A DNA stretch of 33,164 nt. Source: a virus. Lineage: Duplodnaviria > Heunggongvirae > Uroviricota > Caudoviricetes. The notes under the pieces were generated by a model. It saw only the letters and a list, made by a program, of their open reading frames with translations. It was not told where the DNA came from and did no database searches. Shown piece after piece: positions 1 through 5,924 of the stretch. Each line of letters begins with the position of its first letter. Positions within the stretch are counted from its first letter, which is position 1. The DNA lies in the IMG/VR virus record IMGVR_UViG_2534681774_000032, positions 1 to 33,164 of that record; one strand, given 5' to 3'. A program made the translations under genes and the position numbers.

Positions 1-1020
1 CTACTTGCTAACCACGAGCGGCAAATCCAGTGTTGGTGTGATTTTTGTTTTACGATCGTAAATCAACACCTGATTTTCTGTTTTATGCCCGCTGAAAATT
101 TGTTTGTCGCGACTGCTGCCTTCGTAATCTGAGATCCCCTTGGCTTTTATGTCGTGAAAATTACACCCGAACGGAACGCCAACTTTTTGCTCGGCTGCGC
201 GTTTAGCCTGATTCCACCAGTTATTCAGCGTTTTAGCTATGACTTTCCCGCCTTTGGTTGTATTGATCACATATTCGCATGTACAGGAAGATACATTTCG
301 GGCTAACTGGATCGCTGTACGTAATCGCGGTGACCATTCCTTGATTTGTTTGGTGCCGGTTTTGTTTTGCTCAATGTAGATCCCTTTATCCATAATATCC
401 TGCCATTTCAACTCAAGCACATCACCGAGTCTTGCCGCACAGAGATAGGAAATCTCCATTGCAATGCGTAACTGTGGAATTGCTTCCGCATATATCGCCG
501 CATACTGTTCATCGGTGATGTAAACAGTGCGGGCTTTAAGAGAGAATTTTCTGACTCCTTTGCATGGGTTATTCTTCACATACCCACGCTCATATCCCCA
601 CCCGTATACTCGACTCAGGCTTGCCAGTTCATGATTTGCCTGGGTCTTGCTCTCAAGCCCTCGTTTATCCATGAAAATTCTTACCTGCTCAGTTTTGACA
701 TTATCAGCAAGCACTTTTCCGAATACCATCAGCAACGCCTTCTGATGTTGTCGATAATCTTTTTGGGTTCGGGGGGCCAGTTCTGTAAATGCAGGGGAGT
801 CCATAAACATGTGCCATAATTTAGCTACGGTCATTATGTTGTGGAGTTTTGCTTTTTCCAGTTCATAATTTTGCCAGACTTTAGCTACGCTGGTTTTCCG
901 CACTCTTCCTAGCCCTATACTTCTTGTACTTCCTTCGGGTTTCCACACGTAACTGTAACCATTCGATCTAACCCGCGGTGGCAGTACATTATCTTTTTTA
1001 TTTTTTCTTGGTCTTCCCAT
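1..1020 (-). CDS. int: Phage tyrosine integrase (lambda Int family), complete; stop codon at window positions 1-3
   Basis: 339-aa ORF with ATG at 1020-1018; sits at the prophage end next to an overlapping excisionase-like ORF; C-terminal region looks like a tyrosine recombinase catalytic domain. Confidence 0.88.
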   Translation of the reverse strand: MGRPRKNKKDNVLPPRVRSNGYSYVWKPEGSTRSIGLGRVRKTSVAKVWQNYELEKAKLHNIMTVAKLWHMFMDSPAFTELAPRTQKDYRQHQKALLMVFGKVLADNVKTEQVRIFMDKRGLESKTQANHELASLSRVYGWGYERGYVKNNPCKGVRKFSLKARTVYITDEQYAAIYAEAIPQLRIAMEISYLCAARLGDVLELKWQDIMDKGIYIEQNKTGTKQIKEWSPRLRTAIQLARNVSSCTCEYVINTTKGGKVIAKTLNNWWNQAKRAAEQKVGVPFGCNFHDIKAKGISDYEGSSRDKQIFSGHKTENQVLIYDRKTKITPTLDLPLVVSK

Positions 1021-1240
1021 TGTTCAGCGCCTCAAAATCGGGTTCAGCAGAAACCAGTTCAGATGTTTTTGGCATCGTTGTCAGACCGTGTGGAATATCC
1101 CTGCGGAGAACTATGGGTTCGTTTTTAGGGCCGATTACAAATGGGATGCCGTGCAGTCTTAACTGGTGTTGCTGTTTTGTGTATCGCTCGTATTTCGTGA
1201 TCTCTTTAATCTCTGCTGGAGATAGAGTTAATTCGTACAT
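998..1240 (-). CDS. xis: Excisionase-like small DNA-binding protein
   Basis: 80-aa product from the internal ATG at 1240 (MYELTLSPAEIKE...), N-terminus resembles lambda Xis (MYLTLQEW...); 3' end overlaps the int start by 23 nt as in lambdoid xis-int pairs; GTG-extended ORF 998..1378 would overlap the upstream gene. Confidence 0.55.
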   Translation of the reverse strand: MYELTLSPAEIKEITKYERYTKQQHQLRLHGIPFVIGPKNEPIVLRRDIPHGLTTMPKTSELVSAEPDFEALNNGKTKKK

Positions 1241-1307
1241 GTGGTCACGTGCCTTTACAGCATGACCGCCGCCACTATAGCTGGTGGGCGGCGATATGGG
1301 TTGAACA

Positions 1308-3779
1308 TTAAAAATCAGCCTGACTCGGGAGCAGTTTTTGCCAGATGGCTGAAACGTATTTCGCCTGGTAACGTGCATCGTTCAGAGCGTTATGGCGTTC
1401 ACCTTCGAATGGAATAGTCGTTCTTGCGTCGAAATCCATCACCAGTCCCAGAGCAACCATCGTTCTTACATCGCGATCATTGGTGTAACGCCACGGGCAG
1501 GGGATCCCCTGCCGTTCATATGAACGGCGTAAAATCACGTTGTCGAAAGTTGCACCGTTACCCCAGACCTGAACAAAAAATTCACCGGAGTTTTCGTCGA
1601 TAAATTCCCGCAATTGTAACAGTGCATCATCTAACGGGATTTCATCGGTCATAATGGCAGATTGCGCTTCGCGTGATTGCTTAAGCCACCATTTAATGGT
1701 GTCCCGATCAATGACTCCGCCAGCAGTTTCCAGATCAATAGTCTTACTAAATTCCGGTCCCATATCTCCGGTTTGCGGATCGAAAAATATTGCACCTATT
1801 GAGATAATCGGGGCATCAGGATTTTTTCCCATGGTTTCAAGGTCGATCATTAGATGGTCACACGTCCTGCTGGTGGATGTGATAACGTGATGACCGTTCA
1901 CCGTAATTAAGGGATCTGCCGTCTCGCCAGTTTCACTATCGCTGGCGTGATCCTGAGCGCTACCAGCATTCTCCTTGTGTGGATGTTCAGCGCCTTCCAT
2001 TTCCTCCGGATCATTTTCCTGAACTTCAACCTGATTCTCTTCATCGAATGTTTCCTGGTATGTTGCGTCACCCATCACCGCGCCACAATCATGGCAGTTG
2101 CCACCACCGCTTTGACCGCAGGCGGTGCAGACTTTTTCCGGTTCCTGTTGCGCTACTGGCTCAGGTTGTTTCGTTTCTGGCTCGTTTTGTTGCGTATTTG
2201 GGCTGTTTTGTTCCGCTTTCTGGTCGTTCTGTTCCGATTCTTGCTGGTTCTGGTTTACAGAATCGCGGGTTTCCATCCCCTTTACCCATTTCGGATCATT
2301 CGGGTCGCTAATCCCTGCAACAAATTCTCCGCGAGAGGCAGCAAGCAACTTATCGGCGTCAGGCTGGCTGATATTGGCTGCCTGCATAATTTTGTTTACT
2401 TCGTCAGCGGTAACTTTTACCGGCTCTGGTTGTGCGGTCGTGTCAGATGCACCAGTATTTTGTTGTGAACCTGAGTATGTACTGTTTTTGCGGGCGAAAT
2501 ATTCTTCTTTCGTGATTTCAGTAGCCCCGGCAGCCAGTGCCTTATCCAGACCAGAAAGTTTGTTTGCGCGACCGTATTTTTCGCCATCCTTGTCGGTGAA
2601 GAGGAAGTAGAACGGCCCCTCACGCTCTACAGATGGTTCGACTTCCACTTTGCATTCGGTTTTTTCGTTGTCCGGAATTGCCGTTTCCACTGCATCAGTT
2701 TCTGGTACTGACGACGAGAGAGTATCAGTTGCGCTCTGATTTGTTCCTTCATCTTCAAACACGCCCTTTGTAGTCAGGTATTCAGTAATGTATTTGTTCA
2801 GTGCCACAGGGTCTTTGTGAATGTCGATCGGACGTTCACGGACAAGGCCAAAAATAGTCTGGCGGTCGTAGCGAAGGGCATCAGGCTGTTTGCGCATTGA
2901 TGTCGAGATACGCTTCCAGTCTTCGCGGTCGTTGTCGATAACTTCATTTTTTGCCCAGCGATGGATGCTGCCGTCAATGTTTCCGGCATCCACATCACCA
3001 GGCCAGAGAGCGTAGGCCAGTTCGTCATCCAGTGTTTTCCATGTCTGCTTGTATTCGCGATGAATGGCAGCAATGACCAGGCTGATTTTTCCTGTTGAAT
3101 TTTCAGTGTGCTGTTGATTGACTCTGGCGCGGGCGAGATCAACAACAGACGTGTATTTTCCGGTTTCCTTGCGTTCACCTTCGCGACGTTTTTTCCAGAT
3201 GCGCATCTCTGCCTGAATTTCGGGCCATTTGGCACCAGGCTTACATTTATGCTTAACCCACCCGATGGCATGCAGCTTAAGCTCCGGATACATGGCGTTA
3301 ACTTCTGGCATTTTCATCAACGCTTCAACGATATGTCCGTCGAATGTTGCCATGTCTTCCTGCAACAATTCCTGTGCGCTAATAACCATATCAACGGTGA
3401 TGTTTTCACATGTGTCGAACTTAACCATGACAGCGTTCTGTACTTCAGGGGCCAGCTTGTCAAAAGTGACGTTCATCGGATCGGATTCAGTCTCAACCGG
3501 GACAAAGGAAGCAGACTCCTCATCCCAGCGGTTTTCCTGCATATATTCAGCATCCCAGGAATCGAGGGCAGGGCGGGGTATGCCGGGTTTATCCTCACAG
3601 ACAATAAATTTATAAGCGCAGTCCTGAGCTGCAGGGAATTGCTCCAGAAATTGCCAATGAAATTTTGCGCGTGCGCGACGCTCATCACCAGCTTCAATGG
3701 CAGTGGCCACCGCAACAGCGCTATCTTCTTTTATGGCCTGTTCATCAGGAATAGCAGCGCAAATAAAGACTTTACTCAT
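1308..3779 (-). CDS. Prophage exonuclease: RecE-like N-terminal and central region fused to a C-terminal DEDDh-type 3'-5' exonuclease domain
   Basis: 823-aa ORF; central segment [28 protein letters not shown]...[17 protein letters not shown]...[10 protein letters not shown] matches my recollection of Rac RecE; C-terminus carries DnaQ-like motifs ([22 protein letters not shown]). Confidence 0.75.
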
Positions 3780-3871: not shown

Positions 3872-4063
3872 TTAAAGACCTGCCGGGATTTCGTTATTAT
3901 CCTGGTGAATAACTTTATCGACCGGGTAACAGTTACCGGGAATTTTCTGTTCGGTTGCTGCAGTCACACACTCCTGCATTGTCCTGTGAACACTGACTGC
4001 AATATCAACTGGCTCTCCGGAAACAAGAAAAACTGTCAGAACAAGTGCAAATGCTGTATTCAT
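3872..4063 (-). CDS. Small secreted/membrane protein, YdfD-like (63 aa, N-terminal hydrophobic segment)
   Basis: Internal ATG of ORF 3872..4117 gives MNTAFALVLTVFLVSGEP...; start overlaps the stop of the dicB-like gene (ATGA); same position and length as ydfD downstream of dicB in Qin. Confidence 0.45.
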   Translation of the reverse strand: MNTAFALVLTVFLVSGEPVDIAVSVHRTMQECVTAATEQKIPGNCYPVDKVIHQDNNEIPAGL

Positions 4064-4248
4064 TGCCAGCATCCTTTTTGTATCGGACGTAAACGGGCCA
4101 GCATTGAAAGAATGCATATTTTATTTAATAGCTCCCGTTCGTGTTTTCTCTTGTTAATGGCATCTTCAGTAAATACAGGGTTACTGATAGTGACACCAAT
4201 TTCAAAACAACCTTCAGACGTATTAACGTTTGGTAATAACGTTTCCAT
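4060..4248 (-). CDS. dicB: DicB-like cell-division inhibitor (62 aa)
   Basis: Internal ATG (4248) of ORF 4060..4353 preceded by GAGG; product METLLPNVNTSEGCFEIGVTISNPVFTEDAINKRK... closely matches remembered DicB; located just downstream of a DicF-like sRNA. Confidence 0.6.
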   Translation of the reverse strand: METLLPNVNTSEGCFEIGVTISNPVFTEDAINKRKHERELLNKICILSMLARLRPIQKGCWQ

Positions 4249-4423
4249 TATCGCGTCCTCAACAATGAATTTTGTGATGTGGTGCCTGGTGCCTCCAGGT
4301 GACGTTAACCAGTTAACAATTAACGCCGGATACAGAGAATCCACCCATAACACTGTTTTTGGTTTTAACTGTTCCGCGTGCGCTCAGCCGCATTCACCGC
4401 ATCACAAAATTCACTTTAAAAAC

Positions 4424-4475
4424 GGCGGCAGAGCAGTCACGGAGTAAAACTGATACCGCCAAACGTCACCAGAAA
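4424..4475 (-). ncRNA. dicF: DicF-like small RNA (about 52 nt, ends in a GC-rich hairpin plus U-run)
   Basis: Minus-strand sequence TTTCTGGTGACGTTTGGCGGTATCAGTTTTACTCCGTGACTGCTCTGCCGCCGTTTTT matches remembered DicF almost base for base; lies between the ydfC-like and dicB-like genes as in Qin; ends approximate. Confidence 0.55.
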
Positions 4476-5516: not shown

Positions 5517-5924
5517 TTATTTTATTGATTTGTTTTTACGTGCTTTAAGCATTTCTTCGAAGAGTTTATTGAAATTCTCTACTCTTGCGCGCATTTCAGA
5601 CAGTAAGGCTTCCTGCTCGGAGGAGGGAAGAGCATCGAATAATTCGATCAATTCTTTGTGGCTGGGAGTTAACTCGGTTTCCACATGAAGTTCTTGTGCT
5701 GGCACTGGTGCCTTGTCTTCGTCACCAAACATTAGCCATGTAGGCGAGCACTTCAGCGCATCAGCTAAAGCAAATAACCGCTTCCCGACCGGTTGGGTTT
5801 CGTCTCTTTCCCATTGTGAAATTGTGACGTGAGCTACCCCAGCGAGGCGTGCAGCTTCTCGTTGTGTTAGGCGTAATTCTTTTCGTCGTGCCAGAACTCG
5901 CTGGCCTAGGGTTCTTGTATCCAT
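5517..5924 (-). CDS. dicA: Prophage repressor, DicA-like XRE-family HTH protein (cI analogue)
   Basis: 135-aa ORF; N-terminal HTH LTQREAARLAGVAHVTISQWERDETQP; C-terminal CSPTWLMFGDEDK...EMRARVENFNKLFEEMLKAR resembles DicA; divergent from a Cro-like gene; flanked by operator palindromes. Confidence 0.85.
   Translation of the reverse strand: MDTRTLGQRVLARRKELRLTQREAARLAGVAHVTISQWERDETQPVGKRLFALADALKCSPTWLMFGDEDKAPVPAQELHVETELTPSHKELIELFDALPSSEQEALLSEMRARVENFNKLFEEMLKARKNKSIK

Follow-up and report, generated by a model that had tools for sequence, protein, structure and literature searches.

In lambdoid phages, the slot between xis and the kil or dicB genes holds exo-bet-gam in lambda and recE-recT in Rac. 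The locus described here raises the question of whether a large gene in that slot must encode a recombination exonuclease of the same kind. The window, by which we mean the whole 33,164-nucleotide stretch of DNA that was analyzed (IMG/VR record IMGVR_UViG_2534681774_000032, Caudoviricetes), is a lambdoid prophage whose insertion adjoins yccA. On its minus strand, an open reading frame (ORF) at 1308-3779 starts with ATG and encodes a protein of 823 amino acids (aa). An original prediction had described this protein as a chimera of a RecE-like body and a DnaQ-like nuclease, lacking an annealing partner. We identify the gene, from sequence identity, as the intact form of ydfE, and hold with moderate confidence that its product is a modular, end-processing DEDDh exonuclease of the DexA type, carried by Qin/mEp460-type phages, and not a RecET-type recombinase.

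A DEDDh domain at the position of the RecE nuclease

The C-terminal part of the protein (aa 642-813) matches Pfam family PF16473, the Rv2179c-like 3'-5' exoribonucleases, with an expect value (E) of 1.3e-65 and a score of 220.8 bits against a cut-off of 27, and the match spans profile positions 2-177 of 177. All three of the DnaQ-like motifs that had been predicted lie inside it: IDLET (aa 645-649), WGNGATFD (aa 739-746) and HNALND (aa 796-801). An alignment with T4 DexA, an EcD-like protein that is described below and seven stand-alone homologues shows residues D646, E648, D746, H796 and D801 unchanged in every sequence; they correspond to D7, E9, D119, H186 and D191, the catalytic residues reported for DexA (PMC12153337). 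The only solved relatives found in a sequence search of the PDB (phmmer) were two entries for T4 DexA, 8kel and 8ken. A search of cluster representatives also returned numerous stand-alone proteins, about 185 aa long, whose identity to the C-terminal domain is 42-49%. On these sequence grounds we regard the DEDDh assignment as secure. We infer from it an active 3'-5' exonuclease, which would trim free 3' ends by two-metal DEDDh catalysis.

The Pfam scan that found PF16473 found no PD-(D/E)XK domain in the window protein, with no match to PF12684 or any other such family at E <= 0.1. The same scan did not find PF06630 (Exonuc_VIII), and the PDB sequence matches of the window protein include no RecE nuclease structure. 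By comparison, RecE of phage Rac-SA53, which we used as the reference, gave PF06630 at its N-terminus and PF12684 at its C-terminus (E 6.5e-13). Pfam, NCBIfam and BLASTP thus agree with the prediction of a chimera, in which a DEDDh nuclease stands where RecE has PD-(D/E)XK.

The extent of the similarity to RecE is more limited than had been supposed. BLASTP against Rac-SA53 RecE found 73% identity over aa 474-626, 27% over aa 262-336 (RecE aa 295-368), and no other match. The NCBIfam equivalog for exodeoxyribonuclease VIII (ExoVIII), NF007259, aligned aa 246-626 with positions 271-603 of its 877-position model and scored 279.1 bits, far below the cut-off of 1269. Judged from these alignments, the RecE-like body extends from about aa 246 to 626 and is strongly RecE-like only at aa 474-626; the first 245 residues do not belong to it. 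A remote homology between the N-termini of YdfE and RecE was considered and rejected (hhalign probability 0.14%).

The patch at aa 474-626 is about 85% identical to Rac-SA53 recE at the DNA level, indicating a recent mosaic joint, and it includes a four-cysteine knuckle, also present in RecE, that would be expected to bind zinc. In RecE the nuclease domain occupies residues 564-866 and the rest is "of unknown function" (PMC11611040, a review); the similarity to the window protein therefore stops at about the point where the RecE nuclease begins. RecE of the Rac prophage and the window protein have the same slot, from xis to the kil-type genes in the early-left operon, as well as similar size and a beads-on-a-string build, and they have in common the 153-aa segment with knuckle and acidic linker and a weakly similar helical region. 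They differ at both ends and in what follows: RecE combines a PF06630 N-terminus with a PD-(D/E)XK 5'-3' nuclease and has recT after it, whereas the window protein combines a YdfE N-terminus with a DEDDh 3'-5' nuclease, and no annealase accompanies it.

Absence of an annealing protein

The absence of recT or bet between the gene and xis, which had been noted from the sequence, was confirmed. The spacer is only 67 bp and contains no ORF, and the only ORFs between the exonuclease gene and its neighbors are xis, the DUF1482 protein and dicB. We queried the window, 80 related IMG/VR loci (1.0 Mb) and 3 phage loci by tblastn (E <= 1e-3) with three RecT proteins, with lambda Bet, Exo and Gam, and with P22 Erf. 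All positive controls were recovered; RecT, Bet, Erf, lambda Exo and Gam had no match in the window, the IMG/VR loci or the phage loci. Annealase families were likewise absent among the annotated and Pfam-scanned early-region genes of the window, and no annealase is annotated anywhere in the complete PhiR42_1 genome.

These results bear directly on the idea that the protein is a RecE-type recombineering exonuclease served by an unrecognized annealase nearby. The idea gains from the occupied recE slot, from the linker and zinc-knuckle segment common with RecE, and from the fusion of the YdfE scaffold elsewhere to a probable Rad52-like annealase domain, which is described below. It has to contend with the lack of a PD-(D/E)XK domain, a score far under the ExoVIII equivalog cut-off, neighboring ORFs that are all accounted for, the absence of RecT, Bet and Erf from the window and 83 related loci, and the finding, also described below, that RecT tracks the PD-(D/E)XK cassette and not the scaffold. 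We regard it as very improbable, and the doubt originally expressed about a RecET-type recombineering role was well founded.

An intact ydfE, common in E. coli

The window gene is 100% identical to the gene for WP_000048381.1, named "exonuclease" in RefSeq (NZ_CP066032.1), and the identical gene is present in the chromosomes of E. coli FDAARGOS_1059 and two further strains. Copies with at least 80% gene coverage were found by megablast in 3534 of 5426 complete E. coli genomes, often several in each. The gene also occurs in phages mEp460_ev081, Tritos, HannyBb, PhiR42_1 and Evi and in PPompW/Stx2a prophages, and it is intact in the first four of these phages.

Over aa 1-256 the protein shares 96% identity with the one encoded by the pseudogene ydfE (b1577) in the Qin cryptic prophage of K-12. 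The upstream genes ydfA-B-C, dicF, dicB and ydfD are common to both prophages, but the K-12 copy is cut by IS2E, so that its product ends after residue 256, without the linker and without the exonuclease domain. This comparison identifies the window gene as the intact form of K-12 ydfE; as a sequence it is not new, contrary to the novelty that the original prediction implied. The family is already classified in RefSeq, PHROGs and Pfam and, with copies in about two thirds of complete E. coli genomes, is among the commonest E. coli prophage genes. Because the K-12 copy is a truncated pseudogene, ydfE appears in the K-12 literature as an uncharacterized small ORF and the fused family has gone unstudied: the literature that we searched (Rv2179c/phage, ydfE, mEp460, HREX/DexA-like) contained no study of a fused YdfE exonuclease.

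Purifying selection

The protein is under purifying selection throughout its length, and the gene, on this observation, is functional and not decaying. Among 74 distinct alleles the ratio of non-synonymous to synonymous substitution rates (dN/dS) was 0.16 for aa 1-257, 0.16 for aa 258-472, 0.32 for the linker and 0.17 for the exonuclease domain. The catalytic residues are kept in 71-74 of the 74 alleles, with D646N in three (L039-L118), and the knuckle cysteines in 73-74, with C554Y in one (L039-L118); to judge from the residues affected, the D646N and C554Y alleles may be inactive variants. A full-length, intact ORF was present in 78 of the 81 sequences examined.

Selection of this strength, with a dN/dS of about 0.16 in all folded parts, is hard to reconcile with a decaying mosaic relic that has no function and is kept through the abundance of prophage DNA. 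Three observations could be read in favor of a relic, namely the defective state of the window prophage, whose terminase gene is split by an IS66-family element, the truncation of the K-12 copy, and the D646N substitution in 3 of 74 alleles. Against these stand the high proportion of full-length ORFs and the intact copies in inducible or plaque-forming phages, and we consider a relic extremely improbable.

The N-terminal scaffold

The protein is built from a series of modules: YdfE_N/YdfE_C, a helical domain, a beta-hairpin domain, an acidic and largely disordered linker with the knuckle, and the C-terminal DEDDh domain. The two folded domains of the YdfE-specific module were predicted by AlphaFold2 (AF2) as alpha/beta (aa 1-100) and helical (aa 105-205), with a predicted local distance difference test (pLDDT) score of about 85-92. 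Pfam families PF27430 (YdfE_N) and PF27432 (YdfE_C) are listed in a precomputed table for proteins 92-98% identical to query aa 1-472, and the window protein is assigned to them by way of these near-identical proteins, which also carry PF16473. The region weakly similar to RecE was modeled as helices at 247-338 (pLDDT about 85).

The small beta-hairpin domain that follows is invariant across all YdfE-scaffold proteins, with the consensus ER.GPFY...GRANK...EI..EEY.ARK and invariant columns at G388, P389, F390, Y391, G403, R404, N406, K407, G418, E421 and I422. RecE has no counterpart of it, and the alignment with RecE shows a gap there. The AF2 model of aa 1-472, made from an alignment of 40 sequences, has confident blocks at aa 1-100, 105-205, 245-340 and 388-432 and a predicted template modeling score (pTM) of 0.30; disorder is predicted at aa 205-238, 344-384 and 438-457. 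A Foldseek search with this model found no structural relative of the N-terminal 472 residues in the PDB at E < 1.

Exchange of nuclease cassettes

An initial homologue search returned only proteins more than 92% identical to the query. Diverse relatives were obtained from a search of 1.84 billion cluster representatives together with a profile search, followed by Pfam scans. They show four combinations of N-terminal type and nuclease. The YdfE scaffold is joined to DEDDh in the window gene, where RecT does not adjoin, and to PD-(D/E)XK in protein P0140 and IMG/VR loci L036 and L037, where RecT lies immediately downstream. The RecE-type N-terminus, PF06630, is joined to PD-(D/E)XK in RecE, with RecT adjoining, and to DEDDh in P0123, P0126, P0133, P0135, P0136 and phage vB_EcoS-689R5, with no RecT. 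In this small sample, then, RecT tracks the PD-(D/E)XK cassette and not the scaffold. Viewed as domain combinations, both N-terminal types combine freely with either nuclease, a cassette exchange that is typical of lambdoid mosaics, and the window gene would have originated by such an exchange, in which PD-(D/E)XK always comes with RecT and DEDDh never comes with an annealase. The literature searched contained no discussion of a scaffold-wide exchange of nucleases of opposite polarity.

Protein P0126 (790 aa) shows an additional joint, at which the PF06630 N-terminus meets YdfE-type sequence matching aa 238-256 of the window protein; by its alignment this is a further mosaic breakpoint, near the IS2 truncation site of the K-12 gene.

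A third architecture on the YdfE scaffold has no nuclease domain. It comprises proteins of about 750-800 aa (P0137, P0149, P0151, P0270-P0386; loci L038, 5001-7370, and L123, 5650-7986) from prophages of Enterobacter, Klebsiella, Citrobacter, Pantoea and Salmonella, and its C-terminal region of about 280 aa carries the motif KKSLTDA.KKALSLLGFSADVWLGLYD. Pfam Rad52_Rad22 matched below threshold in 4 of 4 members (E 0.0025-0.004), and stand-alone phage homologues carry the names "RAD52-like annealing protein" or "single strand-annealing protein" in their annotation. Searches of the PDB by sequence and profile were empty, and Foldseek with a whole 778-aa model of the P0137 type gave nothing significant. 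A Rad52-like nature of the domain is probable, given the sub-threshold Pfam matches and the depositors' annotations. In L123 a weak Gam-like ORF comes before the gene, and Sipho_Gp157, Exc and Int come after it. Yet another YdfE-scaffold protein, P0129 (702 aa), has a C-terminal region of about 250 aa that belongs to no Pfam family and matches phrog_26058, of unknown function; it may represent a fourth cassette.

The names given to these proteins do not follow their domains. Third-architecture proteins are mostly called "exodeoxyribonuclease VIII" at source, and some "exonuclease family protein" or "hypothetical protein". RefSeq and GenBank apply "exodeoxyribonuclease VIII" to DEDDh-type proteins and to nuclease-free YdfE-scaffold proteins, probably through annotation transfer by way of the common scaffold. 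PHROGs labels the nuclease-free C-terminal domain "exonuclease", a label that we set aside, judging it to have come over from fusion partners.

Comparison with DexA, EcD and Rv2179c

T4 DexA and its E. coli homologue EcD were described in 2025 as exonucleases that recognize 5-hydroxymethylcytosine (5hmC), and EcD on a plasmid protects E. coli against T4 (PMC12153337). Of the features reported for this HREX type, DexA W152 serves 5hmC recognition, and loss of D90 (Ala78 in EcD) makes the enzyme dimer-only and non-toxic (PMC12153337). DexA and the window protein have PF16473 and the five catalytic residues in common, and the domains are about 28% identical; DexA differs in being a stand-alone protein of 227 aa from a lytic phage, with extra loops and no scaffold.

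The published EcD primers led to a 189-aa ORF in six IMG/VR contigs (L010, L015, L025, L026, L028, L031). This ORF starts with MIDTET, has Ala78, and ends in sequence equal to the reverse primer except for one A. On the strength of these primer matches it is probably EcD or a near-identical allele; its phage homologues in INPHARED are at most about 47% identical to it. The encoded protein, which like DexA belongs to PF16473, is 39% identical to aa 644-816 of the window protein over 183 aa and shares the catalytic residues. It differs from the window protein in standing alone, in beginning at the first catalytic motif, and in having Trp at the W152 position and Ala at the D90 position. In both phmmer and MAFFT alignments the window protein has T766 at the position of W152 and retains the tetramer-forming D90 as D718. 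DexA D169, an acidic residue that also figures among the HREX features, aligns with D782 by phmmer, in a region that is gapped and variable in the multiple alignment, and the two may correspond. As aligned, the window protein does not preserve the features that were linked to 5hmC specificity (PMC12153337).

The relationship to EcD suggests that the gene might encode a prophage-borne anti-phage exonuclease of the EcD/HREX type, one that degrades the 5hmC DNA of superinfecting T-even phages and spares the host. Membership of the same Pfam family, the 39% identity, the protection against T4 that EcD confers (PMC12153337), and the fact that the gene is carried by prophages and is itself very common in E. 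coli would all fit. Anti-phage defense is also described for other DEDDh exonucleases of prophages that have auxiliary domains (TONDO preprint, PMC13344964). However, T766 replaces the recognition Trp and D718 retains the Asp that EcD has lost; the gene lies in a repressed early-left operon and not in a moron position, and should be silent in a lysogen; EcD is a stand-alone protein of 189 aa, whereas the window protein has 640 extra residues; and PADLOC returned only a weak, generic DEDDh match and no specific model. We think this function unlikely. The broader suggestion in the original prediction, that the protein could be a nuclease effector, was dropped: beyond that PADLOC match nothing supports it, and no secretion, immunity or toxin-type neighbor was seen among the annotated genes of the window.

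Rv2179c of M. tuberculosis, the protein that gives PF16473 its name, is a stand-alone chromosomal RNA exonuclease. It has the Pfam family and DEDDh chemistry in common with the window protein, but it was not among the phmmer PDB matches of the window protein at E <= 0.01 and is therefore more distant than DexA. An action on RNA or short oligonucleotides, whether to trim transcripts, to attack RNA phages or to clear nucleotide second messengers of host defense systems, would accord with the family name, with a sub-threshold Pfam match to RNase_T (E 0.011), and with the trimming of RNA-phage 3' untranslated regions by ISG20-like prophage DEDDh enzymes (PMC13344964). We judge it quite improbable, since the nearest solved relative by sequence is the DNA exonuclease DexA, and since the genomic slot and the linker shared with RecE point to DNA transactions; the TONDO genes, moreover, are distinct in sequence from other defense-associated DEDDh domains according to their authors (PMC13344964). 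For a DexA-type end-processing exonuclease the substrate would most probably be DNA, by analogy with its closest characterized relatives, T4 DexA and EcD.

Operon context

The order of genes in the early region is int, xis (DUF4224), the exonuclease gene, a ydfD-like DUF1482 gene, dicB, DicF, ydfC, ydfB, ydfA, a DicA-type repressor gene, cro, ydaT and the replication genes (Table 1). The layout around the exonuclease gene is that of the dicBF operon of K-12 Qin, in which only DicF, DicB and YdfD are characterized and the promoter dicBp is repressed by DicA (PMC10448788). By this analogy the DicA/CI-type repressor is expected to silence the operon, and hence the exonuclease gene, in a lysogen. 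No promoter of the gene's own was supported, as promoter and terminator sites around it were no more numerous than in shuffled sequence.

Table 1. Window positions of the modules of the exonuclease gene and of the surrounding early-left genes.
Feature	Position	Strand	Evidence
Whole gene, intact ydfE-type exonuclease	1308-3779	-	ORF; PHROG 2082 "exonuclease" over 1-823/823
YdfE-specific module, aa 1-257, two folded domains	3009-3779	-	K-12 ydfE identity; phrog_5943; AF2
Helical domain, aa 258-345, weakly RecE-like	2745-3008	-	27% identity to RecE; ExoVIII match; AF2
Small beta-hairpin/helix domain, aa 385-432	2484-2627	-	Invariant columns; AF2 pLDDT about 76-86
Segment common with RecE, aa 474-626, acidic Q/E/N-rich linker	1902-2360	-	BLASTP, composition, charge
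Four-Cys knuckle CxxC-x7-CxxC, aa 551-565, present in RecE too	2085-2129	-	Sequence
DEDDh 3'-5' exonuclease domain, aa 642-813	1341-1856	-	Pfam PF16473; T4 DexA PDB match; invariant columns
xis, excisionase-like DUF4224 gene, downstream neighbor	998-1240	-	Annotation, Pfam
Integrase, after xis	1-1020	-	Annotation, Pfam
ydfD-like DUF1482 lysis gene, upstream, same early-left operon	3872-4063	-	Annotation, Pfam
dicB, upstream, same early-left operon	4060-4248	-	Annotation, Pfam
DicF small RNA, same operon	4423-4474	-	Rfam RF00039, 72.5 bits
DicA/CI-type repressor	5517-5924	-	Annotation; position equals dicA in K-12

The spacer between the exonuclease stop codon and the start of xis contains two adjacent hairpins (1236-1312, minus strand), CGCCGCC...GGCGGCG and GUCAUGC...GCACGUGAC, with no T-run. 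Their minimum free energy is -25.6 kcal/mol, with a z-score of -2.06 relative to shuffled sequences. They might mark a site of processing or retroregulation, or have no meaning at all.

Other features of the prophage

The large terminase gene is split at about 20482-25066 by an IS66-family element (ISEc22 transposase, TnpB and an accessory ORF, from the RefSeq annotation of an identical region), which makes the window prophage defective even though the exonuclease gene is intact. A SIR2-family gene (8572-9531, plus strand; Pfam SIR2_2, E 8.6e-6; weak PADLOC matches to Aga_SIR2 and PDC-S21) occupies a moron-like position, with the replication genes on one side and hok/sok on the other, and may be a prophage-borne defense gene. 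The hok/sok type I toxin-antitoxin locus itself is at 9734-10058 (plus strand; Rfam sok, 116 bits; hokD annotated). Further along, a DNA methyltransferase gene (13430-15044, plus strand; PADLOC MTase_II, E 2.8e-165) has no adjoining annotated restriction gene; after it come three tRNA genes (Ile, Arg, Arg) and then the small RNA STnc100.

A proposed role in phage DNA metabolism

We propose that this large gene is the final one in the early-left (dicB/pL-type) operon of lambdoid phages of the Qin/mEp460 type. We infer that derepression of the early-left transcript would lead to synthesis of the protein after prophage induction or infection. The N-terminal scaffold, with the RecE-type linker and knuckle, may serve in targeting, as a tether to some partner or to the substrate, and the C-terminal domain would act on nucleic-acid ends during phage DNA metabolism, with no phage annealase involved.

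Several considerations weigh against this proposal. Since recombinases depend on 3' tails, which would be lost to a 3'-5' exonuclease, a role in promoting recombination is not obvious, and the protein that gives the family its name is an RNA exonuclease, which leaves room for a substrate other than DNA. The argument for tethering is the conservation of the N-terminal 472 residues, which had no structural relative in the PDB. The annealase search covered three families by tblastn together with annotation, and a very divergent or novel annealase could have escaped it. The literature searched did not contain a paper that ties ydfE to an exonuclease, and in K-12, where ydfE is a pseudogene in a cryptic prophage, transcripts that reach it were undetected (PMC10448788).

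Implications

In entire groups of viable lambdoid phages (mEp460, PhiR42_1, HannyBb and Tritos), the classical recombination slot is taken by a predicted 3'-5' exonuclease with no accompanying annealase. The name "exodeoxyribonuclease VIII" implies, for many of the proteins that bear it, the wrong polarity or a nuclease that is absent altogether. The most interesting lead is the exchange of nuclease cassettes of opposite predicted polarity on the same scaffolds. We suggest, tentatively and as a possibility to which we give limited weight, that RecE/YdfE-type scaffolds are a common lambdoid platform for interchangeable DNA-end enzymes. An equally tentative joint reading of the cassettes is that the platform may carry a PD-(D/E)XK 5'-3' nuclease together with RecT, a DEDDh 3'-5' nuclease alone, or a fused Rad52-like annealase domain.

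If this were true, the DEDDh version would represent an annealase-independent processing of DNA ends with opposite polarity, which is not yet described for temperate phages. It might provide a new route of recombination or replication restart, or a weapon in conflicts between phages or against host defenses. The segment shared with RecE falls in the part of RecE whose function is unexplained, and a common platform would offer a handle on the N-terminal two thirds of RecE, which have long lacked an explanation.

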